DNA of 64,000 nt from Holophagales bacterium (GTDB lineage: Bacteria > Acidobacteriota > Thermoanaerobaculia > UBA5066): NCBI GenBank assembly GCA_016719485.1, contig JADJZB010000006.1, positions 27,375-91,374 of the forward strand, in the 5' to 3' direction. The notes under the pieces are model-generated. The model searched no databases. It saw only the letters and a program-made list of their open reading frames with translations, and was not told the DNA's origin. Shown here piece by piece: positions 9,383 through 29,239 of the stretch (its first letter is position 1; every line of letters starts with the position of its first letter). Both the position numbers and the translations under genes were made by a program.

Positions 9383-11196
9383 CTACGCCCCCGCCCGCCG
9401 CGGGAAGCGTGACGCGGAAGAGGCTCCCCCCGAGCCGGGAGCCTCGACGTCGATGCGGCCCCCGTGCCACCTCACGATCTCGGCCACGAGGGCGAGGCCG
9501 AGACCGAGCCCCGGGACGGTCGCCGCGGAGCCCCCGCGGGCGAATCGCCGGAAGATCTCCTCTCGCTCGCCGGGCGGGATTCCCGGCCCCCGGTCGCGGA
9601 CCGTGAGGCAGACCGATTCGCCGCCGGCCGGGCCCACCGCCACGTCGACCGGCTCGCCGGGCGCGAACTTCAGGGCGTTGCCGACGAGGTTGTCGACGAC
9701 GCGGACGAGGAGCGCCGCATCGCCCTGTACGGCGAGCCCGGGCTCGCCCGAGAACCGGATCTCCCGCTCCGCCCCCCGAGGCAAGGAGCGCCGTTCGCTC
9801 CTGGACGAGCTCCGGGAGGTCGACGAGCGAGGAAGACCCTTCGGAAGTCCCTCAGCTTGATCCTCTCGAGGTCCAGGAGCGTCTCCACCATCTCCGCGAG
9901 CCGCGCGCTCTCCCGCGCGACCATCCCGGCGACCGACCGGCGGCGCTCCTCGCTCAGGTCGAACCCGGAGAGGAGCTGCGCGAGCCCCCGCACCGACGTC
10001 AGCGGCGTCTTGAGCTCGTGCGCCAGGACGCGGCGCGCTTCCGCGTCGTCCTTTCGCTCGCTCTCGAGAGTGGCGGCGAGCGCTTCGAGCTCGACGATGC
10101 GCCGGACCGCGACCGCGGCCCGGCGGCGGTCCGCGAGGAGGCGCCACAGCTCGGGGCCCGCCGTCGCGGCGAGGCCGCCGAACGCCGTCGCGAGGAGCGG
10201 CAGCTCCCGCCCGGCCCAGAGGAGCAACACCATCCCGGCCGGAACCGCGAGCAGGGGGACGGCGGCCGCCGCGGGAGCCAGACGAGGCGCGACCCGCCGT
10301 CGCAGAGCCGTCGCACCACCCGTCAGGAGACCGGCGAGTCCCCCGGCAACGAACGGAGGGAGCCGTTCGTACAGGTCTCCCGTCAGGAGCGACTCGGTCG
10401 CCGCCGCCTGCACGAGGACGCCCGGATCGGGCGTTCCGCGCTCCGATAGAGGCGACACGACGCGGTCTCCGACCCCTGCCGCGACCGAGCCGACGAAGCA
10501 GACCCGGCCCCGGAGCGCGCCCTCCGGCAGGCTCCCGCTCAGGACGTCCGCGGCGCTCCAGGTCGGCACCTCGTCCGCGGAACGGAAGCCGGGCCGGATC
10601 GGTGCCCCGACCGGCAAGGGGATCTCCGGCCGCAGGAGCCGGGCCGCCGCGAAAGGCATCGCGCCGAGGGAGAGCCCGTCGAGCTGCCGGGTCGCGAGGA
10701 AGCCGCGAACGACGCCGTCGCGATCGACGGCGAAGCTGACGTGCGCCACCTCTGAGGCCGCGCGCAGGCCGGAAGCGGGGAGAATCCATCGCTTTGTCCC
10801 GTCCGGCGCGGCGGCGAGGACCGACGGTCTCGCCGCGAGCGCGGTAGCGAGGGCCTCGTCGCCCGGGCGTGTCTCCGCGAGGAGGAGGTCGATCGCCACG
10901 GCGGCGGCCCCTGCCGCCCCGATCCGGTCCACGAGGGCGGCCAGGCGCTCCCGCTCCCAAGGCCACGGCCCGACAGCGCCGATCGCCTCCTCGTCGACGA
11001 CGACCGCCGCGACGGATATCGCGGCCGCCCTCGGCCGGGTCCGCAGGAGCGCGTCCCGAACCAGCAGCTCGGCGGAATCGACCCAGCCCGCAGCGGCAAC
11101 GAGCGTCACGAGGAACGCAGCCGCCAGCGGCGGGCCGAGACCTTCAGCCGCCCGAATCCGGGTCGCCTTCACCTCGGGGAGAGTACGTCTGCGCAC
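9383..11196 (-). pseudogene. CHASE2-domain sensor histidine kinase, frame disrupted between HisKA and HATPase regions (~9760-9850)
   Basis: ORF 9670..11196 has TM + CHASE2-like region and H-box VLAHELKTPLTSVRGLAQLL; the HATPase region (VVDNLVGNALKFAPGEP...GLGLGLALV) lies in a different frame (ORF 9383..10966); a third frame gives HK-like LVDLPELVQERTALL between them, implying two indels near homopolymers. Confidence 0.65.
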
Positions 11197-22347: not shown

Positions 22348-22505
22348 GGTATCTATTTTCGTTGTCCCATGCTATCCGTAGATACCCGCGGAAGTGAAGT
22401 GTGCCAGCGTAAATCTATGGTATATGGCTAGTTGCGGCTGTCCGCAGACGGAGGTGCCGAATGGGGTTCAAGGGGTCGCGAGTTCGAATCTCGCCGTCCC
22501 GACCA
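22348..22505 (+). repeat. tRNA-3'-end-like element, copy a (~158 nt; homologous to 26649..26805)
   Basis: ends with atggggttcaaggggtcgcgagttcgaatctcgccgtcccgacca = T-arm (gcgag/ttcgaat/ctcgc) + 7-nt acceptor 3' strand + ACCA; ~70% identical to copy b over ~110 nt upstream of the core. Confidence 0.6.
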
Positions 22506-22893: not shown

Positions 22894-23304
22894 CTACCTC
22901 CAGTTGCGGTCCATGAGCCCGTGGTCCTCTACGTCGTCACGCGCGCCCTCGACGCCAGTACCGATAGGCTTCGATCCACTCGGTGCCGCTGGGCGGGCGG
23001 GCAGGCAGGGGCAGGTCGAGGATGGGGATTCTCTGCCGGGGGGGCCCGCGACACAGAGGGCAACGATGCCGTCGTCCGTCAACTCCACTCGCTTGACCGA
23101 AACCGCCACGCCAAGAATTTCCGTCGAGAAGGGGAGGGCGAGGTGATCCTCTATCAGCGTGTAGAGCCCCGACTGCTGCTCGTCGTCGTTGTACGTATCG
23201 ACGGTCGCCTCGGCGACCAGCGCATCGAGCTGTGGGCCTGAGAGACGCACCCGTCGCCCGGCGGGGCGAGCGGGGGCCGGCCGGACCGTCTGGCGACTCT
23301 TCAT
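22894..23304 (-). CDS. hypothetical small protein translationally coupled to the primase-helicase gene
   Basis: ATG 23304 overlaps the upstream stop (ATGA); LSGPQLDALVAEATVDTYNDDEQQSGLYTLIEDHLALPFSTEILGVAVSVKRVELTDDGIVALCV reads as genuine protein; C-terminus crosses a C7 homopolymer so the end is uncertain; antisense ORF 22798..23241 rejected. Confidence 0.4.
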   Translation of the reverse strand: MKSRQTVRPAPARPAGRRVRLSGPQLDALVAEATVDTYNDDEQQSGLYTLIEDHLALPFSTEILGVAVSVKRVELTDDGIVALCVAGPPGRESPSSTCPCLPARPAAPSGSKPIGTGVEGARDDVEDHGLMDRNWR

Positions 23305-25802
23305 GGCGAGGACCCGGCGGGAATCGCCCTGGCACCGATCTCTTCTTCTCCGCGTGTTGAGTCAGGGCCAGAGGTTTCGGCCACTCTGTACCCGATCTCT
23401 CGGTAGCCGCGCATCCTGCGTTCGAACATACGGGCGAGGACCGGAACCTGGCGGTCGACGTAGTCGACGATGCGGGCTTCAGTCTTCCCCGGGAGCGGGC
23501 GGTGGAGCCGACCAGCGTACTGGACGAGCGTGCCCCTCCAGGAAATCGGCATGGCGAGGAACAGCGTGTCGAGCCGCGCGTCGTCGAAGCCTTCGCCGAC
23601 GTAACGGCCGGTCGCCATGAGGAGACGCGGTTCATCCGGCGGAATGGCGCGAAGCCTTGCCATCGACTCTCGCCGTTGCTTTGCCCCGGTTCCACCGCGG
23701 AGTACGACGACGTGCGGGCAGGCCGCGGCAAGGCGGGCGGCGAGAAGGTCCAGATGATCTCGGCGTTCCGTGAGGACGAGTGGTGTGCGTCCCTCGCCGA
23801 GCGCGAGCGTCACGTCGCGAACGATGGCGTCGTTTCTCGCTTCGTCCCGGGCCAGCGCACCGTAGAGGCTCTGGATGGAAGGATCGGTGTCCTGTGCGGA
23901 AGAAGTGAACGACGTTTCGCGAACGACCAGGGTCTTCGTCAGTGAGTCCGCCGACTCAGCCGGCTTGCGGCCCACGTCGAACCGGACGGGCCCGATCTGC
24001 ATGTGGAGGATCGGCTGGTGGCCGTCCCGACGCTTGGCCGTGGCCGTCAGCCCCACGACGAACTTCGCCCGGATTCCCGAGAGCACTCGTTCGAACGAGA
24101 CGGCCGGGATGTGGTGACACTCGTCCACGATGACGTGGCCGTAGCCGCCGACGATCTCGTCGATCTCGTCGCCCCGGACGAGGCTCTGGATCATGGCGAC
24201 GTCCAGGTGCCCGTTCGGCTTTCGGACGCCCCCTCCGACTCGACCGATCTCTCTCGGATCGACGCCGAGGTGCAGGGACAGCTGCTCCACCCACTGGTCC
24301 AGGAGCGGCTGGCGGTGGACGAGTACGACCGCCGAGCGGGCCCGGGCGGCGATCAGGTACGAGCCGACGACCGTCTTCCCCGATCCCGGCGGGGCCACGA
24401 AGACTCCGGTGTCGTGGGCCAGCAGCATCTGGGCTGCCTCCTCCTGCCGGGGAGTGAGGCTGCTGGCGAACGACACGTCGAGCATCGGCCCTTGGTGGCG
24501 CTCGTCCTCGAGGTCCAGCCTCACGGCGTGCCCGCCGAGAAGGGGGCGGAGGTCATCGAGGCAGCCTCTCGGCAGCGAGACGTGGCGAGGGTGATCCTCC
24601 GCACAGCTGATCACACGAGGCGTGAGTGCCGTCGAGAGGCGCAGTCCCTGCTTCTTGAAGAACTCCGGATTCTGGAAAGCGGCAAGACGCTTGATCTGGT
24701 TGAGCAGCGGGGAGGGGAGCCCCTCCTTCGCGACGAAGAGCCGGTTTGCGAGGACGGCGCGAACTTCAGTCGGGAGCGGTCCGAGGAGAAGGCGAGCGGT
24801 CGATCGCCGGGACGGCGTCTGGCGCCACGGCCGAGCGGCATCCTCATCCTCCCCGTCCTCGGTGGTCCGGACTCCGACGACCAGCCCTTTCCTCGCGGCC
24901 TCCGAGGCAATCGTCTCCACGTAGTCCCGGCTCATCCGATTGACCCCGAGGAGGTATGCCCACTGGTCCGGGTGGGGCTCGAGGTTCGCGTCGAGAAAGA
25001 CTGTGTTTCCCTGAGTGCGGGGATGGCGCTGGAGCGGAAGGGCGATCAGGTTGCCGAATCCGCCCCGGGGCATCGTGTCCTGGCTCGGGAAGAGGCGGTC
25101 GTACGACGCCATGCTCAGCTCGTGCCTGCGGGACATCGTCTCGGTGATCAGGAACGAGGCCATCCGCCGGGCTGCGGAGGCGGGGACGGGCGCAGAGAAG
25201 AAGAGCCAGGCATGGGCCCCGTTGCCGGACCGCGACCGTTCGACGGCAATCGGAACTCCCAGCTCTCCGCACGTGGCGGCGAAGGCCGAAACATCGGCAG
25301 CCCATTCGGCCTCGTCGAAATCGGCGGCGACAAACCAGCAGGTCTCGTCGGCGAGCAGGGGATAGCAGCCGATCACGTGACGACCCTGGAGGTGATCGAG
25401 GAGCACCTGGTCGGACATCGGGAGAAAGGCCTGGCTCGGGCAGTCGCCACAACGGACGCGCGGCTTCTCGCAGACTCCTCGCACCCAGTCGTTCCGGCAA
25501 GTTGGGGAGTACCCCTTCTTGCCCGTCTTCGGGCTGACCCAGAGCTTGGGGAACACGTCCTCCCGGCCACGGAAGAGACTCCGGAAGAGGCCAACCTTCT
25601 CTTGCGCGTTCAGCCGACCGGCGGGAGCCGGCGTCGCGACGATGGTGCGGCCTTCGCTGTCATCCTCTGCGCGAAGGGCGTTCCGGAGGTCCTCGACTTG
25701 CTTCTCGAGTGCGTCCCGGCGTCTGCCGAGGTCGGCGATCTCCGCTTCTGCGGCCTCGATGGCAATGGTGAGAGCTGCCCGTCGGTGACCGCGGGCGTTC
25801 AT
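23301..25802 (-). CDS. archaeo-eukaryotic primase-polymerase (Prim-Pol) domain fused to SF2 DExH helicase
   Basis: real start MNARGHRRAAL at 25802 overlapping upstream stop; N-terminal Cys cluster CRNDWVRGVCEKPRVRCGDC, AEP motifs VAADFDEAE and RSRSGNGAHAWLFF; helicase Walker A APPGSGKT, DECH box VIVDECHH, TAT GLTATAKRRDG, motif VI VQYAGRLHR. Confidence 0.75.
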   Translation of the reverse strand: MNARGHRRAALTIAIEAAEAEIADLGRRRDALEKQVEDLRNALRAEDDSEGRTIVATPAPAGRLNAQEKVGLFRSLFRGREDVFPKLWVSPKTGKKGYSPTCRNDWVRGVCEKPRVRCGDCPSQAFLPMSDQVLLDHLQGRHVIGCYPLLADETCWFVAADFDEAEWAADVSAFAATCGELGVPIAVERSRSGNGAHAWLFFSAPVPASAARRMASFLITETMSRRHELSMASYDRLFPSQDTMPRGGFGNLIALPLQRHPRTQGNTVFLDANLEPHPDQWAYLLGVNRMSRDYVETIASEAARKGLVVGVRTTEDGEDEDAARPWRQTPSRRSTARLLLGPLPTEVRAVLANRLFVAKEGLPSPLLNQIKRLAAFQNPEFFKKQGLRLSTALTPRVISCAEDHPRHVSLPRGCLDDLRPLLGGHAVRLDLEDERHQGPMLDVSFASSLTPRQEEAAQMLLAHDTGVFVAPPGSGKTVVGSYLIAARARSAVVLVHRQPLLDQWVEQLSLHLGVDPREIGRVGGGVRKPNGHLDVAMIQSLVRGDEIDEIVGGYGHVIVDECHHIPAVSFERVLSGIRAKFVVGLTATAKRRDGHQPILHMQIGPVRFDVGRKPAESADSLTKTLVVRETSFTSSAQDTDPSIQSLYGALARDEARNDAIVRDVTLALGEGRTPLVLTERRDHLDLLAARLAAACPHVVVLRGGTGAKQRRESMARLRAIPPDEPRLLMATGRYVGEGFDDARLDTLFLAMPISWRGTLVQYAGRLHRPLPGKTEARIVDYVDRQVPVLARMFERRMRGYREIGYRVAETSGPDSTRGEEEIGARAIPAGSSP

Positions 25803-26293
25803 CCGGCGACGTCTTCTCCCGCCAGTGAGAGGACGCGTTTTCGAATGTCGGGCGACATCCACATCCCGGAGGCAGCGAGAAGGTCCACGAGCGGAGCTAC
25901 GGAAGGGACGAGGCGAGCCTTCTTGGCCTCGAGCAGGACACGGAGGGTGCCCCAGGTGGTCAGGCCGGCGGCGCGGGCCGTCCGCCGCGCGAGCGCATCG
26001 TCGAGAAGGAGGATTCGCTGAGGGTTTTCGAGGGCGAGCGCCATCGCGGCGAGCTCTCCGGCTCCGAGATCGAGAGTCAGCCACTCGGAGGGGGTCGATT
26101 TCGGGTCGACGGTCTCCAGCCAGGCCAGGTTGTCCGTGTCTGGCACCTCGAACCCGAGTGCCCGCCCTTCGCCGAGCTCCCTCAGGACCGCCGACGGAAC
26201 CCAGACCGACCCGAAGAGCTGGTCAAGCCAGCCGAGAGCTCCGATCCGACCCAGGTAGAGAAGGGGAGAGGTGTTAGTGATCGAGCCTGGCAT
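25799..26293 (-). CDS. DUF3368-type PIN-like nuclease domain protein (putative toxin)
   Basis: MPGSITNTSPLLYLGRIGALGWLDQLFGSVWVPSAVLRELG pattern typical of DUF3368; overlaps upstream ORF by 20 nt and the downstream primase-helicase by ATGA. Confidence 0.55.
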   Translation of the reverse strand: MPGSITNTSPLLYLGRIGALGWLDQLFGSVWVPSAVLRELGEGRALGFEVPDTDNLAWLETVDPKSTPSEWLTLDLGAGELAAMALALENPQRILLLDDALARRTARAAGLTTWGTLRVLLEAKKARLVPSVAPLVDLLAASGMWMSPDIRKRVLSLAGEDVAG

Positions 26294-26534
26294 CGCCTTC
26301 GAGCTCGGTAAGCTCGGCTTCCAGCGGGAACGTCTTGTAGCGCTTCAGCTCGTAGAGGAACTCGACCCGGCCCATTCCAGCGAGCTCTGCCGCTCGGCCC
26401 GAGGAGAGCCTGCCCAGTTCATAGAGCTTGACCGCCGCGAGGACCTGCAGCTCCCTCGCGAAAGACACCTCGTCGGTCTTCTCGGATAGAAGGACCTTTT
26501 CCGGAACCGCGACAACTACCGACCGTGACGCCAT
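26274..26534 (-). CDS. UPF0175-family antitoxin-like protein
   Basis: 86 aa, SFARELQVLAAVKLYELGRLSSGRAAELAGMGRVEFLYELKRY typical of UPF0175 partners of DUF3368. Confidence 0.5.
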   Translation of the reverse strand: MASRSVVVAVPEKVLLSEKTDEVSFARELQVLAAVKLYELGRLSSGRAAELAGMGRVEFLYELKRYKTFPLEAELTELEGDARLDH

Positions 26535-26648
26535 CTCTTTGGACTCCCATGGCGATTGTCTCTCAAGAGCGCTGCCCGATCCTGTCGGATCCTTCCCGCG
26601 GGGGGCCGAACGCAGGTTTCAGAAGCGTCGTTCATTGAGAGCCTCAAG

Positions 26649-26805
26649 GTATCTACTTTCGTTGTCCGATGCCGTCTGCGGATAGTCCGGGCGGCATCTC
26701 ACCCAAGCGTAAATTCATGATATATGGCCAGTTACAGCTGTCAGTGGACGGAGGTGTCGCATGGGGTTCAAGGGGTCGCGAGTTCGAATCTCGCCGTCCC
26801 GACCA
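26649..26805 (+). ncRNA. tRNA-3'-end-like structured RNA element, copy b (followed by intrinsic terminator)
   Basis: same 45-nt T-arm/acceptor/ACCA core as copy a plus ~110 nt of homologous upstream sequence; followed by gccgccggg-aa-cggcggc + TTTTT; canonical 5' acceptor strand not found by eye. Confidence 0.45.
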
Positions 26806-26858: not shown

Positions 26859-27560
26859 CTACTTCTCTCTGACCGACCTCGTCACCTGACCCGTCCCTGC
26901 GAGGGCGCGAAGTCGCTGAAGCAGGATCGGCACCCGCGCCTGGCTTCCGCTATCCGACGGGAGATGACCCGGAAGCGCCGAGAGGAAACGCTCCTCGGTC
27001 AAGAACCTCCCGAGTTCGATGCCGAGAAACGAGCGAAGGTCATCGGACGAGGCCGAGACCTCCTCCACGATCCCGTCGCGGCCGTCGACGACGCTGACGA
27101 AGTCCTCGAGGTCGTGGCTGGAGGCGTAGTCGCCTCGCCCCCTTCCCAGGAACGCCTCCAGCTTGGTGGCCAGGAAGGCCGGCGGCGAGACCACCGCGAT
27201 CTCGACGCCGCTCGGAAGCCGGACGGTCCGCTGCGTTCGCAGCGCTTCCGGGTACCAGCGGTTTGCGAAGCCGAGCACCGAAGGATCGATCGGCATGACG
27301 TCGAGGAGAGTCTCGCCGAAGGTCCATCGGCAGATCGGAGCCCCAGCGCTCTGATCGTGGCGGAATCCGCGCTCCGTCATCTCCCTCTCGAGCGCGAAGT
27401 ACGCGGACCGGTCTGGTGTCTCGACGATCACGTCGACGTCCCGCGTAGCTCGGATCGGCGCGGCGGCAGGATCCGTGATCAGGAGTCCCGTGGCACACCC
27501 CCCGAGGAAGACCATGCTGTGGCGCAGGGGCCCGAGGGCCTCGGCGATACGCTCGAGCAT
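26859..27560 (-). CDS. nucleotidyltransferase-fold protein (AbiEii/DUF1814-like putative toxin)
   Basis: real start MLERIAEALGP at 27560 (upstream ORF part is GC junk); FLGGCATGLL, DVDVIVETPD motifs of minimal nucleotidyltransferase; preceded by wHTH gene. Confidence 0.5.
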   Translation of the reverse strand: MLERIAEALGPLRHSMVFLGGCATGLLITDPAAAPIRATRDVDVIVETPDRSAYFALEREMTERGFRHDQSAGAPICRWTFGETLLDVMPIDPSVLGFANRWYPEALRTQRTVRLPSGVEIAVVSPPAFLATKLEAFLGRGRGDYASSHDLEDFVSVVDGRDGIVEEVSASSDDLRSFLGIELGRFLTEERFLSALPGHLPSDSGSQARVPILLQRLRALAGTGQVTRSVREK

Positions 27561-27580: not shown

Positions 27581-28093
27581 TCACCTCAGCCGCTCCTCGA
27601 GGAGTCGCGTGGCCATCTCGCGCTCGCGAGCACGTCCTGCCCGCAGGGCATCGAACAGAGCGAGAAGCTCGTACAAGGCGGGGTCTTCCAGCGCGGCGCC
27701 CGGTGCGGAAGGAATGAGCGGCGCGAGGCTCGGTCCACGCGCGGTGCCGTTCGGGTGAGGCCAGACGGGAGGCGGTTCGGAGGCGTCCGCGAGGAGTTCC
27801 TTCAGCGGCGAGGCGGCGTGCGCGGTCGGGATTCCCCTCGCCAACTCGCCCCGAAACGCCGGGAAGGAGTACTTCGCTCCGTGGACGAGAAACTCCCGGA
27901 GCGCCTCGGCCCGGGGTCTGACGCGCAGTCCTCCTGGCGGCAGCAGGCCGGCCGCGACCGCCCGCTTCACCGCGCCGTGAGCCTCCGACACGCTCATCCC
28001 CAGGGACCGGGCGAGGAGCGGGTAGGTCCAAGCCTGGTCGCGTCCGACCCAGAGCTTGAGAGCGACGAGGAGATCCTGCGGTTTCAGGGCCAT
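27581..28093 (-). CDS. winged-HTH transcriptional regulator (AbiEi-like putative antitoxin)
   Basis: MALKPQDLLVALKLWVGRDQAWTYPLLARSLGMSVSEAHGAVKRAVAAGLL wHTH; immediately upstream of nucleotidyltransferase gene. Confidence 0.4.
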   Translation of the reverse strand: MALKPQDLLVALKLWVGRDQAWTYPLLARSLGMSVSEAHGAVKRAVAAGLLPPGGLRVRPRAEALREFLVHGAKYSFPAFRGELARGIPTAHAASPLKELLADASEPPPVWPHPNGTARGPSLAPLIPSAPGAALEDPALYELLALFDALRAGRAREREMATRLLEERLR

Positions 28094-28452
28094 GGAGGGA
28101 GTGTATTCGTGATTCGCGAAACGCGAAAGGGCGAGAACTCGAACCGGTTCTATTGGCCCGTCGCGAGGCCGCGTCTCGCAGGAACCCGATGCGATCCTCA
28201 CGACCCTCGCCGCCAGTGTCGATACGCCTCAATCCACACCGCCCCGCCGGGAGGAAGATCGGGGAGACTCGGTGAGCCTTGTGTACGAAACGTCGGGGAT
28301 CGCAGGCGGAAGTCAACAGTTTGTTCTTCGCCGGGAACCACCCGAGAACGAACGGCGAATCGGAGGTGCTGCGAGGCGAGGAGGTGTCCACACTACTGTC
28401 CAAAACGGCCGGACCCATCGGGCTCCCGGCGTCGAAAGCGCTCCTTTTCCCC

Positions 28453-28497
28453 ATGGGGTTCAAGGGGTCGCGGGTTCGAATCTCGCCGTCCCGACCA
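28453..28497 (+). repeat. tRNA-3'-end-like core, copy c (one substitution: gcggg instead of gcgag in T-stem)
   Basis: atggggttcaaggggtcgcgggttcgaatctcgccgtcccgacca; no upstream homology to copies a/b. Confidence 0.55.
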
Positions 28498-28608: not shown

Positions 28609-28953
28609 TCAGTCGAGGGAGTCGCGAAGCCGACGAAGTCGCGACGCGAGAACGGGCAGGTCGCTGACGACGATCATCCAGACGAGCTCGAGGTCCACCG
28701 CGAAGTACCCGTGGACGACCCGGTTCCTGAGGCCGACGACCCGCGGCCATTCCAGGTCCGGTGTGCTTGCCCTGAACTCATCCGGCACGTGAGCGGCTGC
28801 TTCTCCGAGAATCTCGAGGTTCCTCACGACGGCGTCGGAGGTCTTCTCGTCGGCGAGGAATGCGGGCTGGTCCATTCTCGCGACATACCGCTCGATCCGC
28901 TCCGTCGCCTCGAGCATGTCGTCGAGCAGGAGGCGGACGGAGCGTCTAGACAT
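28609..28953 (-). CDS. hepT: HepT-like (DUF86/HEPN) RNase toxin
   Basis: HEPN Rx4-6H-type motif region RNRVVHGYF, DUF86 pattern VRNLEILGEAA; overlaps mntA by 8 nt. Confidence 0.65.
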   Translation of the reverse strand: MSRRSVRLLLDDMLEATERIERYVARMDQPAFLADEKTSDAVVRNLEILGEAAAHVPDEFRASTPDLEWPRVVGLRNRVVHGYFAVDLELVWMIVVSDLPVLASRLRRLRDSLD

Positions 28954-29239
28954 GAAGAGCTTCGAGCCGGATAGCGTCCATGTGACGTGGACGCAGCGCC
29001 CGCGTTGAGATGAGGTCGACCGGTCGGCCGAGGGCCTCTTCGAGCTTGTCGGCGAGCGTGACGAAATCGAGTCCGATCGCGGGATCTACTTCGACGAGGA
29101 TGTCGATGTCGCTTCGGTCGGTCTCGTCGCCCCGCGCGAACGAGCCGAAGAGGGCCAGGTCGCGCACGCCGAAGCGACGTCCGAGGTCGGGCTTCATTGC
29201 CCGGAGGGTCGAGATGATCTCCTCGCGGGATCGAACCAT
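28946..29239 (-). CDS. mntA: MntA-type minimal nucleotidyltransferase antitoxin
   Basis: LALFGSFARGDETDRSDIDILVEV (GSxxRGxxxxxSDxD) nucleotidyltransferase motif; 97 aa. Confidence 0.65.
   Translation of the reverse strand: MVRSREEIISTLRAMKPDLGRRFGVRDLALFGSFARGDETDRSDIDILVEVDPAIGLDFVTLADKLEEALGRPVDLISTRALRPRHMDAIRLEALHV

Follow-up and report, generated by a model that had tools for sequence, protein, structure and literature searches.

A primase-helicase operon with a coupled toxin-antitoxin pair and a predicted CcbP-fold partner in a repeat-bounded cassette of a Holophagales bacterium

The four-gene operon

The locus described here lies in a 64,000-nt stretch of DNA from a Holophagales bacterium (GenBank assembly GCA_016719485.1, contig JADJZB010000006.1, positions 27,375 to 91,374), hereafter the window, to which all coordinates refer unless a related locus or contig is named by its L number. 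It comprises four overlapping genes on the minus strand, which encode a toxin-antitoxin (TA) pair of the UPF0175 and DUF3368 PIN-like families, a fusion of an archaeo-eukaryotic primase (AEP) with an XPB/Rad25-type superfamily 2 (SF2) helicase, and a small protein of predicted CcbP fold (Table 1). A first-pass annotation made from the sequence alone had proposed four open reading frames (ORFs) between 22894 and 26534, and all four were found at the positions claimed. The domain assignments made at that time were correct by Pfam (UPF0175, DUF3368 and AEP-TOTE with the E-values of Table 1, and ResIII at 1.1e-19 for the helicase half), with E-values of all four matches far beyond chance. The short motifs by which the fusion protein had been recognized, VAADFDEAE, SGNGAHAWLFF, GSGKT, DECH, TAT and QYAGRLHR, are present in the translation, in columns that are invariant across 21 homologues.

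The overlaps between the genes were read directly in the sequence and agree with those reported earlier. Genes 1 and 2 share 20 nt (ATG at 26293, TAA at 26276-26274), and ATGA stop/start overlaps at 25802-25799 and 23304-23301 flank gene 3 at both ends, at its junctions with genes 2 and 4. The 4-nt and 20-nt overlaps are retained in the related loci L087, L088, L089 and L090.

Table 1. Features of the operon, its cassette and the adjoining island, in window coordinates.
Feature	Position	Strand	Description
Gene 1	26274-26534	minus	86 aa; UPF0175 antitoxin-like, first gene of the operon; Pfam UPF0175 8.1e-22; PADLOC PDLC05076 3.2e-5 (weak, PDC-S70 partner)
Gene 2	25799-26293	minus	164 aa; DUF3368 PIN-like toxin; Pfam DUF3368 1.9e-11; PADLOC PDLC05071 (PDC-S70) 1.8e-43
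Gene 3	23301-25802	minus	833 aa counted from ATG; N-terminal long helix, AEP primase-polymerase with Cys4 cluster, linker, XPB/Rad25-type SF2 helicase
AEP domain of gene 3	24912-25601	minus	residues 68-297; PF22548 AEP-TOTE 7.8e-96, profile positions 1-229 of 230
SF2 helicase core of gene 3	23454-24464	minus	residues ~447-783; PDB matches
Gene 4	22894-23304	minus	136 aa; CcbP-fold small partner (predicted), frameshifted allele
Out-of-frame C-terminus of gene 4	22937-23041	minus	translates as PRQRIPILDLPLPARPPSGTEWIEAYRYWRRGRA*
Left 160-nt repeat	22348-22505	plus	last 46 nt are the tRNA-Pro(GGG)-like 3' half, anticodon loop to CCA
Right 160-nt repeat	26648-26805	plus	exactly 4300 nt from the left copy; bounds the four-gene cassette
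Third copy	28452-28497	plus	46-nt tRNA-like core only; one mismatch in 34 nt
AbiEii-like nucleotidyltransferase, neighboring cassette	26859-27560	minus	Pfam AbiEii 3.7e-4, just below cut-off
206-aa protein, neighboring cassette	27581-28201	minus	no Pfam match; placed like an AbiEi antitoxin
Second CcbP-like gene, C-terminal remnant	28198-28266	minus	...LPDLPPGGAVWIEAYRHWRRGS*; custom profile 2.3e-6 and 7.6e-8
HepT/MNT pair	28609-29239	minus	right edge of the island; Pfam HepT-like 4.5e-28, NTP_transf_2 3.1e-12

The primase-helicase fusion

An upstream GTG at 26084 would extend gene 3 to an ORF of 927 residues; the ATG at 25802 was preferred as the start because homologues are 832-837 residues long. 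In the AEP half, a weak match to Pfam DNA_primase_S supports the assignment to the AEP superfamily in addition to the AEP-TOTE match. An alignment of 21 homologues revealed invariance of the catalytic residues D161 and D163, of the motif S190-H197, of the Cys4 cluster (C102, C111, C118 and C121), and of helicase motifs I (G473-T477), II (D560-H563), III (T586-T588) and VI (Q761, G764, R765 and R768). With these residues retained, the domains and catalytic sites of gene 3 are intact.

The ResIII match of the helicase half is accompanied by weaker matches to DEAD and Helicase_C. Its closest solved structures are of the XPB/Rad25 type (PDB 6p4f, 3.9e-14, residues 447-610), and the PDB chain 7clg ('Putative helicase') was matched over residues 462-783. 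For the AEP half, the CRISPR-associated PrimPol 7nqd was matched at 6.8e-9, and the sole strong PADLOC match of gene 3 was to PDLC01465 ('PrimPol, CRISPR-associated'; 1.5e-88). The NCBIfam models XPB, rad25 and RadD matched the helicase part with scores far below their cut-offs (XPB NF045503, 68.3 bits against 610; rad25 TIGR00603, 45.1 against 328.7), and PrimPol_Msp NF040561 gave 98.8 bits against a cut-off of 200. Going by these scores, gene 3 is XPB-like in sequence and is orthologous neither to XPB nor to CRISPR-associated PrimPol. A structure model of the 833-residue protein, which predicted the long N-terminal helix, was of low confidence (pLDDT 64.5, pTM 0.38) and was not used.

Gene 3 belongs to a very large family. 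Close homologues number at least 8000, an E-value of 1e-10 or lower was reached by 7999 of the 8000 candidates scored, and the AEP domain alone retrieved 1442 cluster representatives at E <= 1e-30. The best 120 homologues align over nearly their full length at 59-94% identity and span Acidobacteriota, Planctomycetota, Rokubacteria, Binatia, Myxococcota, Gammaproteobacteria and other groups; across phyla, from Acidobacteriota to Pseudomonadota, identity stays at about 60%. Members occur on chromosomal islets and on conjugative plasmids. The first-pass annotation had stated that database labels exist for AEP and helicase proteins of conflict systems, and this is so: Pfam attaches 'TOTE conflict system' to the AEP domain, and some NCBI homologues are named 'TOTE conflict system archaeo-eukaryotic primase domain-containing protein'.

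Two conserved core genes and an interchangeable upstream slot

Gene neighborhoods were compared across 80 species-level genome loci together with several metagenome contigs. The exact unit of UPF0175, DUF3368, helicase and partner was confined to close relatives of 77-94% identity. It is present in L087 and L088 (94%) and in L090 (80%); L089 (77%) is without the partner gene; in L001 and L002 (77%) an internal deletion has cut the PIN gene to 48 codons; and in L098 the TA pair (PIN protein 92% identical) and the partner stand 64 nt apart (10505-10569), the 2.5-kb helicase gene between them being gone. Close relatives have lost different genes of the cassette.

In the wider family, about 25 of the 77 loci compared have a TA component encoded by the same-strand ORF directly upstream of the helicase gene. 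Families represented in this slot include AbiEii (at least 12 loci), DUF3368 (three), HepT (two) and CopG (two), with HipA, PIN_3, Phd, Fic/Doc and Zeta seen once each; the cognate partners (AbiEi, BrnT, UPF0175 and HTH proteins) sit one gene further upstream. Many TA/helicase junctions overlap by 4-19 nt, and AbiEii genes overlap or abut the helicase start in other lineages. TA components were significantly more frequent at this position (25/77) than on the downstream side (3/74, p = 5e-6) or divergently upstream (about 8/77, p = 0.0014). Downstream, the CcbP-like partner is the sole recurrent family; its gene follows directly on the same strand in roughly 20 of some 80 loci, which are scattered over phyla and over the similarity clustering of the helicase. 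Complete four-gene units with other TA pairs were observed in L007 (MNT/HepT; the nearest outgroup of the window clade), L069 and L050 (AbiE), L076 and L080 (BrnT/CopG) and L045 (an RHH antitoxin). Conservation shows the design to be a two-gene core with an exchangeable slot for a TA pair of type II or type IV, of which the PIN pair is one filling. The first-pass annotation had reasoned that the defense reading would fall if the PIN/UPF0175 pair were absent from the conserved neighborhood. Taken at its word, this is the outcome, since the pair is restricted to the close clade and absent family-wide; because other TA pairs occupy the same position, however, the case for a general association of TA modules with the primase-helicase gains strength, although no one pairing is kept throughout.

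The first-pass annotation had also reasoned that the defense reading would fall if homologues were consistently found beside integrases or relaxases as replication initiators and never with the PIN pair. This is not what was seen: of about 82 loci, no more than 11 have a recombinase gene at a distance of up to 6 kb; this rarity is to be read alongside the alphaproteobacterial conjugative plasmids described below, where the gene stands beside transfer and establishment genes. Conflict-type neighbors of homologues include BREX fragments, MmeI-like and D12 methylases, SNF2 and Schlafen-like proteins and CBASS, and many other homologues are single genes in ordinary chromosomal surroundings.

Several further neighbors were recorded. 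An unannotated protein of about 270 residues is encoded downstream of the helicase in seven loci (e.g. L057, 8702-9517), a SWIM-SNF2 helicase lies near the primase-helicase in seven (e.g. L027, 2762-5683), and DUF6880 proteins do so in about four. Shortly after the end of the module, tRNA genes are found on the other strand in L024 (5376-5627), L050 (5239-5329), L013 (8701-8774) and L089 (4231-4306). In these unrelated genomes the identities of the tRNAs vary (a Lys/Arg/Pro cluster, Ser, Gln and Ala), and their position corresponds to that of the tRNA-like fragment in the window.

The small partner and its frameshift

The small gene, of predicted CcbP fold, is the most widely conserved single partner of the primase-helicase and is frameshifted in the window, points that the first-pass annotation had missed. 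A custom profile made from genes that lie downstream of homologues matched the window twice, in two frames: the N-terminal 87 residues of gene 4 were matched in the annotated frame (9e-32) and its conserved C-terminus in the -1 frame (9.8e-14). The residues of this out-of-frame segment, PRQRIPILDLPLPARPPSGTEWIEAYRYWRRGRA*, fit the invariant positions L100, P101, P105, W110, A113, Y114 and W117 of the partner alignment. Compared with its relatives, the window has a 1-nt deletion in gene 4, which leaves a run of seven C at 23038-23044 as the site of the frameshift, and L087, L088 and L090 encode an intact partner of 122 residues that reads '...CVAGRHRQRIPILDLPLP...'. Five contigs, drawn from at least four samples, encode this identical 136-residue product; for this reason a sequencing error was rejected, and the frameshift is considered real and fixed in the lineage. 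It deletes the last strand and the C-terminal helix, the site of most of the invariant residues, and since the conserved C-terminus is lost the core may be partly disabled in this strain.

The run itself, C_CCC_CCC in the zero frame on the minus strand, fits the slippery pattern X_XXY_YYZ, and a -1 slip at it would yield a protein of 122 residues, the length of the orthologues. The RNA downstream of the run folds no better than shuffled sequence (z = -0.22).

Structure prediction of the small partner, which the first-pass annotation had proposed, revealed the CcbP fold: the AF2 model (pLDDT 87.8) superimposed on Anabaena CcbP (PDB 3urg) with a TM value of 0.66 and a match probability of 1.0, and otherwise resembled SH3-like barrels, weakly. 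Against a cut-off of 21.5 bits, Pfam Calci_bind_CcbP (PF11535) scored the frame-corrected protein at 24.8, the L087 orthologue at 25.4 and the 136-residue ORF at 20.8. The partner family gave 905 matches, often labelled 'calcium-binding protein'. We considered whether the primase-helicase and the partner form a TA pair themselves and rejected this, as three quarters of the homologues are without the partner.

CcbP-like domains also occur apart from the helicase. L085 (11285-12514) encodes a 409-residue fusion of such a domain with a TPR repeat, beside a DUF6880 gene and a TacA/GNAT pair, and in Micromonospora (L091, 6001-7473) a CcbP-like gene of 103 codons is followed by an unannotated gene for a 382-residue protein.

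The toxin-antitoxin pair

Genes 1 and 2 together match the PADLOC candidate system PDC-S70, which is an unvalidated candidate. UPF0175 orthologues of 88% identity occupy the same position in L001, L087 and L098, and the PIN-like protein retains every column that is invariant among 26 homologues. Inactivity of the toxin owing to N7 was considered and rejected, because asparagine is the family norm at position 7.

The repeats and the integration hot spot

The flanking repeats reported earlier are real: the two copies are 89% identical over a 101-nt aligned block, with zero matches expected by chance. Their description as tRNA-like holds for the last 46 nt, which align with that part of a tRNA-Pro(GGG) gene that runs from the anticodon loop to CCA, and fails for the remaining 112 nt of the 160-nt element. 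No intact tRNA or tmRNA was found in the 64-kb window by ARAGORN or by Rfam at gathering thresholds, and no intact tRNA was present at the hot spot in any related contig. A tmRNA origin of the repeats was considered, as a permissive Rfam scan had matched the 3' end of the tmRNA model, and was rejected: only that end was matched, a G3:U70 pair is impossible with the acceptor 3' strand CGUCCCG-A-CCA, and there is neither a match to the body nor a tag frame. RNAalifold on five copies of the repeat detected little covariation outside the T-arm. Within the T-stem, compared at 22472-22505 and 28464-28497 of the window, L090 (6745-6925) and L001 (3555-3735), a compensatory change was seen, GCGAG...CUCGC in the window against GCGGG...CCCGC in L090 and L001, with a G-U intermediate in the third copy of the window.

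A junction scan of metagenome contigs recovered nine related contigs, and in every one that covers that flank the repeat element lies beside the same efflux operon. What follows the element differs between strains. In L105, the flank of which is 97.7% identical, a tyrosine integrase gene (162-1403) comes directly after the element, the only integrase found at the site; in L103 (5235-7402) a mercury-resistance cassette, encoding a MerA-like reductase and a MerT-HMA protein, has a partial copy of 45 nt on one side and a complete copy on the other; and in L109 (5891-7492) an AbiE-like cassette follows the repeat directly, the four-gene cassette and one repeat copy being missing. No recombinase was detected in the window by two home-made profiles of limited reach. 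The repeats mark a strain-variable integration hot spot, at which cassettes are arrayed in tandem, the four-gene unit being one of them and having no integrase of its own. The GC content of the island drops to 0.62, compared with about 0.70 in its surroundings. Because of this dip, of the absence from L109 and of the differing gene losses in relatives, the cassette is regarded as accessory and labile; it is mobile and prone to decay.

The element was compared across window positions 22348-22505 and contigs L101, L103-L106 and L109. In the most distant relative, L104, it is 87-92% identical, against 78% for the flanking coding DNA. Ahead of the tRNA-like core, a stretch of 112 nt is both conserved and repeated; it might represent an attachment-site arm, an RNA gene or a promoter. 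The island has a single sigma-70-like match (26717-26744, minus; CTGACA-16-TATCAT, 10/12), which lies within the right repeat and faces the operon, and the equivalent stretch of the left repeat faces the efflux operon. A promoter role of the element is inconsistent, since no same-strand genes follow it in L090 and L001. Contig L087 (1-4134), in which the cassette is 94% identical, starts and ends inside the repeat; an assembly break is to be expected there, and a circular excised form would also fit.

The neighboring TA and abortive-infection modules noted in the first-pass annotation, namely the AbiE-like pair and the HepT/MNT pair, were likewise confirmed (Table 1). The last ~22 codons of a second CcbP-like gene (...WIEAYRHWRRGS*) adjoin the third repeat, and the stop codon that ends them overlaps the start codon of the gene for the 206-aa protein in the AbiE-like cassette. 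This remnant suggests a relic of a decayed, earlier, related cassette.

Search of plasmid and phage records

Full-length homologues of about 50% identity were found in 98 plasmid records, mostly of large alphaproteobacterial conjugative plasmids with replicons of their own. On pSinB (L095) the gene lies beside traA and traCDG, and on both pSinB and Agrobacterium pA (L099) it stands among DUF736, ArdC-like zincin and ParB-like genes. On the Sulfitobacter plasmid unnamed05 (L097) it is located between a CBASS operon and three tyrosine recombinase genes, with DUF736 and DUF6878 nearby; on other plasmids the surroundings are unrelated. DUF736 genes repeatedly flank the gene on alphaproteobacterial plasmids, and three adjacent tyrosine recombinase genes follow in two unrelated plasmids. 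Among 50,697 phage records, no full-length homologue was found.

Interpretation and alternatives

From the gene content, the intact motifs, the overlaps, the conserved core with its TA slot and the accessory, labile nature of the cassette, we infer a role in conflict with invading DNA. The reading that we prefer, and to which we would give an even chance, is that of a modular conflict operon of four genes, borne as cargo by a non-autonomous integrative cassette. Of the two alternatives raised in the first-pass annotation, a defense system and a replication module of a decayed integrative element, each is partly true, the array in which the cassette lies being indeed integrative and decayed; the observation of the locus itself was confirmed and its functional interpretation was supported in part.

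In such an operon, transcription would start from a self-repressed TA promoter, and loss of the antitoxin under stress or infection would raise expression of the core. The XPB-like motor may then open or track along the duplex DNA of an invading or replicating element and pass the exposed strand to the AEP domain, which would prime or extend at unscheduled sites and in this way block replication of the element or yield a nucleic-acid product. The CcbP-like protein, kept in fixed ratio by translational coupling, might be a regulatory subunit of the fusion protein, and the toxin could serve addictive maintenance of the cassette, back-up by abortive infection, or both. The cassette itself would have arrived by site-specific recombination at a tRNA-Pro-like attachment site, its integrase having since gone from the strain.

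A conflict role is supported by the conflict-derived name of the AEP family, by the PDC-S70 match and by the conflict-type neighbors of homologues, as well as by a helicase of the SF2 rather than the hexameric SF3 or DnaB type and by the lack of full-length homologues in the phage records. A number of observations weigh against it. The steps of the mechanism are all ones that we infer. No curated PADLOC model covers the primase-helicase as a defense system, and the strong PADLOC match is to a CRISPR-associated model, yet no cas genes are nearby. Identity of about 60% across phyla is unusually conservative for a defense gene. About two thirds of the homologues are without a TA gene directly upstream and three quarters without the partner, so the fusion protein can act alone. 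TA genes are also common divergently upstream, in about 10% of loci, and part of the association therefore reflects a TA-rich neighborhood. The UPF0175/DUF3368 pair also occurs widely by itself, in a large family of 1321 homologues, and L098 retains the pair without the helicase. Finally, the alphaproteobacterial plasmid context fits a function on behalf of the mobile element and not of the host.

A more ambitious proposal, which we put forward tentatively, is that the core of AEP-XPB fusion and CcbP-fold protein represents a widespread, undescribed class of modular immune systems with TA pairs as swappable effector or regulator cassettes. The core would sense invading DNA and then, through its priming or translocase activity, free the toxin or block the invader. 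The TA pairs observed with it are of the PIN, HepT, AbiEii, BrnT, HipA, Doc and Zeta types.

The strongest rival to a conflict role, which we nevertheless judge unlikely on balance, is that the primase-helicase serves the mobile element, priming or opening transferred or excised DNA for establishment or replication, with the TA pair as an addiction module and the window as a decayed remnant. The 98 plasmid records would be explained in this way, among them the transfer- and establishment-type contexts of pSinB, pA and the Sulfitobacter plasmid, and so would the position of the cassette in an array of attachment-site repeats, the tyrosine integrase at the same site in the 97.7% identical strain, and the tRNA genes that converge on the module in L024, L050, L013 and L089. 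However, the XPB-type SF2 helicase is unlike the ring helicases of initiators, and the carrier plasmids have their own replicons. The recombinase counts given above for the chromosomal loci and the custom-profile search of the window also argue against such a role, as do the absence of full-length homologues from the phage records and the many solitary chromosomal copies.

It is improbable, in our estimation, that the modules are independent of one another, a self-sufficient TA pair having landed upstream of the helicase in a TA-rich hot spot without being coupled to it. Although UPF0175/DUF3368 pairs commonly stand alone and are a PADLOC candidate in their own right, the pair occurs without the helicase in L098 and the helicase with a destroyed PIN gene in L001, and the island holds two more TA pairs in addition to the divergent TA genes seen elsewhere, this view has to accommodate the 4-nt stop/start overlap at the TA/helicase junction in the window and in L087-L090, the AbiEii genes that overlap or abut the helicase start elsewhere, and at least five unrelated TA families in the same slot before the same two-gene core. 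The junction overlaps, together with the strong side and orientation biases, thus weaken the case for mere juxtaposition.

XPB helicases and primase-polymerases act in DNA repair elsewhere. A repair or damage-tolerance function, in which the XPB-like motor and the primase-polymerase restart replication or bypass lesions and the gene is horizontally mobile, would be in keeping with the NCBIfam XPB, rad25 and RadD matches, the very high conservation across phyla and the many single-gene loci, but we think it very improbable: the repair models score far below their cut-offs (XPB, 68 against 610), the gene is patchy and borne on islands and plasmids, its presence differs between near-identical strains, it has been lost repeatedly in close relatives, and it is tightly linked to TA genes. 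That the locus is a canonical TOTE conflict system, as the whole-length AEP-TOTE match and the NCBI names of homologues would have it, is hardly credible and already contradicted by missing defining components, as no TPR, cold-shock/OB or TBP gene is present in the cassette or recurs beside 77 homologues, and the partner is predicted to have a CcbP or SH3-like rather than a cold-shock fold.

The conflict-operon reading, which we continue to prefer, concerns a primase-helicase fusion that is among the larger uncharacterized families linked to biological conflict, and nature provides variants for comparison in the intact cassette and in those with the PIN gene deleted, the helicase deleted or the partner frameshifted. 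If TA pairs are indeed regulated effectors of a DNA-sensing primase-helicase, this would be a new logic in bacterial immunity and would give many 'orphan' TA pairs a role. Should the protein help mobile elements to establish themselves, it would represent a new kind of leading-region function; if neither immunity nor establishment holds, what is left is a well-annotated accessory cassette of modest interest.

Comparison with known systems

The protein family, the TA pair and the partner fold have each been catalogued already, and the window copy is a slightly damaged member. A description of a primase-XPB fusion with a CcbP-like partner and an exchangeable coupled TA slot, without TPR-OB or TBP components, was not found in the accessible literature.

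TOTE conflict systems were reportedly predicted by Aravind, Iyer and Burroughs in 2022. In a paper that cites this prediction, the acronym stands for 'TPR, OB, TBP, Effector' and the systems share a TPR-cold-shock fusion and TATA-binding-protein-like genes (PMC12458937). The AEP domain of gene 3 matches over its full length the Pfam family named for the TOTE effector. In contrast, it is fused here to an XPB-type helicase, and its companions are TA pairs and a CcbP-fold protein. Pfam identified no TPR, cold-shock/OB or TBP domain in any ORF of the island, nor were these among the top 25 flanking-gene families listed for the 77 loci. We considered the small partner as the OB component and rejected it on account of its predicted fold. 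Because the effector domain is shared and the other defining features are missing, the locus is not a canonical TOTE system.

CRISPR-associated primase-polymerases (CAPP) have a homologous AEP catalytic core, as evidenced by the match to 7nqd and by the PADLOC 'PrimPol' model; the fusion to an XPB-like helicase sets gene 3 apart from the CAPP proteins matched, and no cas genes were found, whether in the window island itself or in the flanking-gene families listed for the 77 loci. XPB/Rad25 proteins, namely archaeal XPB and the TFIIH subunit XPB, are the best solved relatives of the helicase half and share motifs I, II, III and VI. The RRDG element after motif III presumably sits where XPB has its RED motif. 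Unlike XPB, gene 3 is fused to a primase-polymerase and is carried on islands and plasmids.

In the replication initiators of mobile elements, AEP domains are combined with ring helicases of the SF3 or DnaB type. Plasmid and satellite initiators of the pRN1 ORF904 type (AEP with SF3) would resemble gene 3 in that a single polypeptide, encoded on mobile DNA, contains both a primase-polymerase and a helicase. They would differ from it in that their helicases are ring-forming, of SF3 or SF4, whereas that of gene 3 is SF2, and in that gene 3 has no consistent integrase or origin context. The helicase was found to be of the ResIII/XPB type, and alphaproteobacterial plasmids were the only setting in which the gene was linked to transfer genes.

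The small partner is like Anabaena CcbP (Alr1010; PDB 3urg and 2p0p) in its predicted fold and in an N-terminal acidic motif. It differs in being only about 18% identical, in its basic disordered N-terminal tail and proline-rich C-terminal motif, and in its fixed linkage with the primase-helicase. Genes 1 and 2 resemble PDC-S70 and VapBC-like type II modules in having a small antitoxin gene followed by a toxin gene in overlapping frames, with both PDC-S70 models matched; the candidate system consists of the pair alone, whereas here the stop codon of the toxin overlaps the start of the 2.5-kb primase-helicase gene and a longer operon results.

As a whole, the cassette can be compared with tRNA-targeting islands and with integrase-less cis-mobilizable elements, which pile up in tandem at a single attachment site. 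It differs from these in that there is no intact tRNA at the site, the repeat reaches 112 nt past the tRNA-like core and is better conserved than nearby coding DNA, and no integrase was found within the element with the custom profiles. What it has in common with them are direct repeats that contain a tRNA-like 3' half, cassettes in tandem, strain-specific cargo, and an integrase at the same site in the near-identical strain L105.

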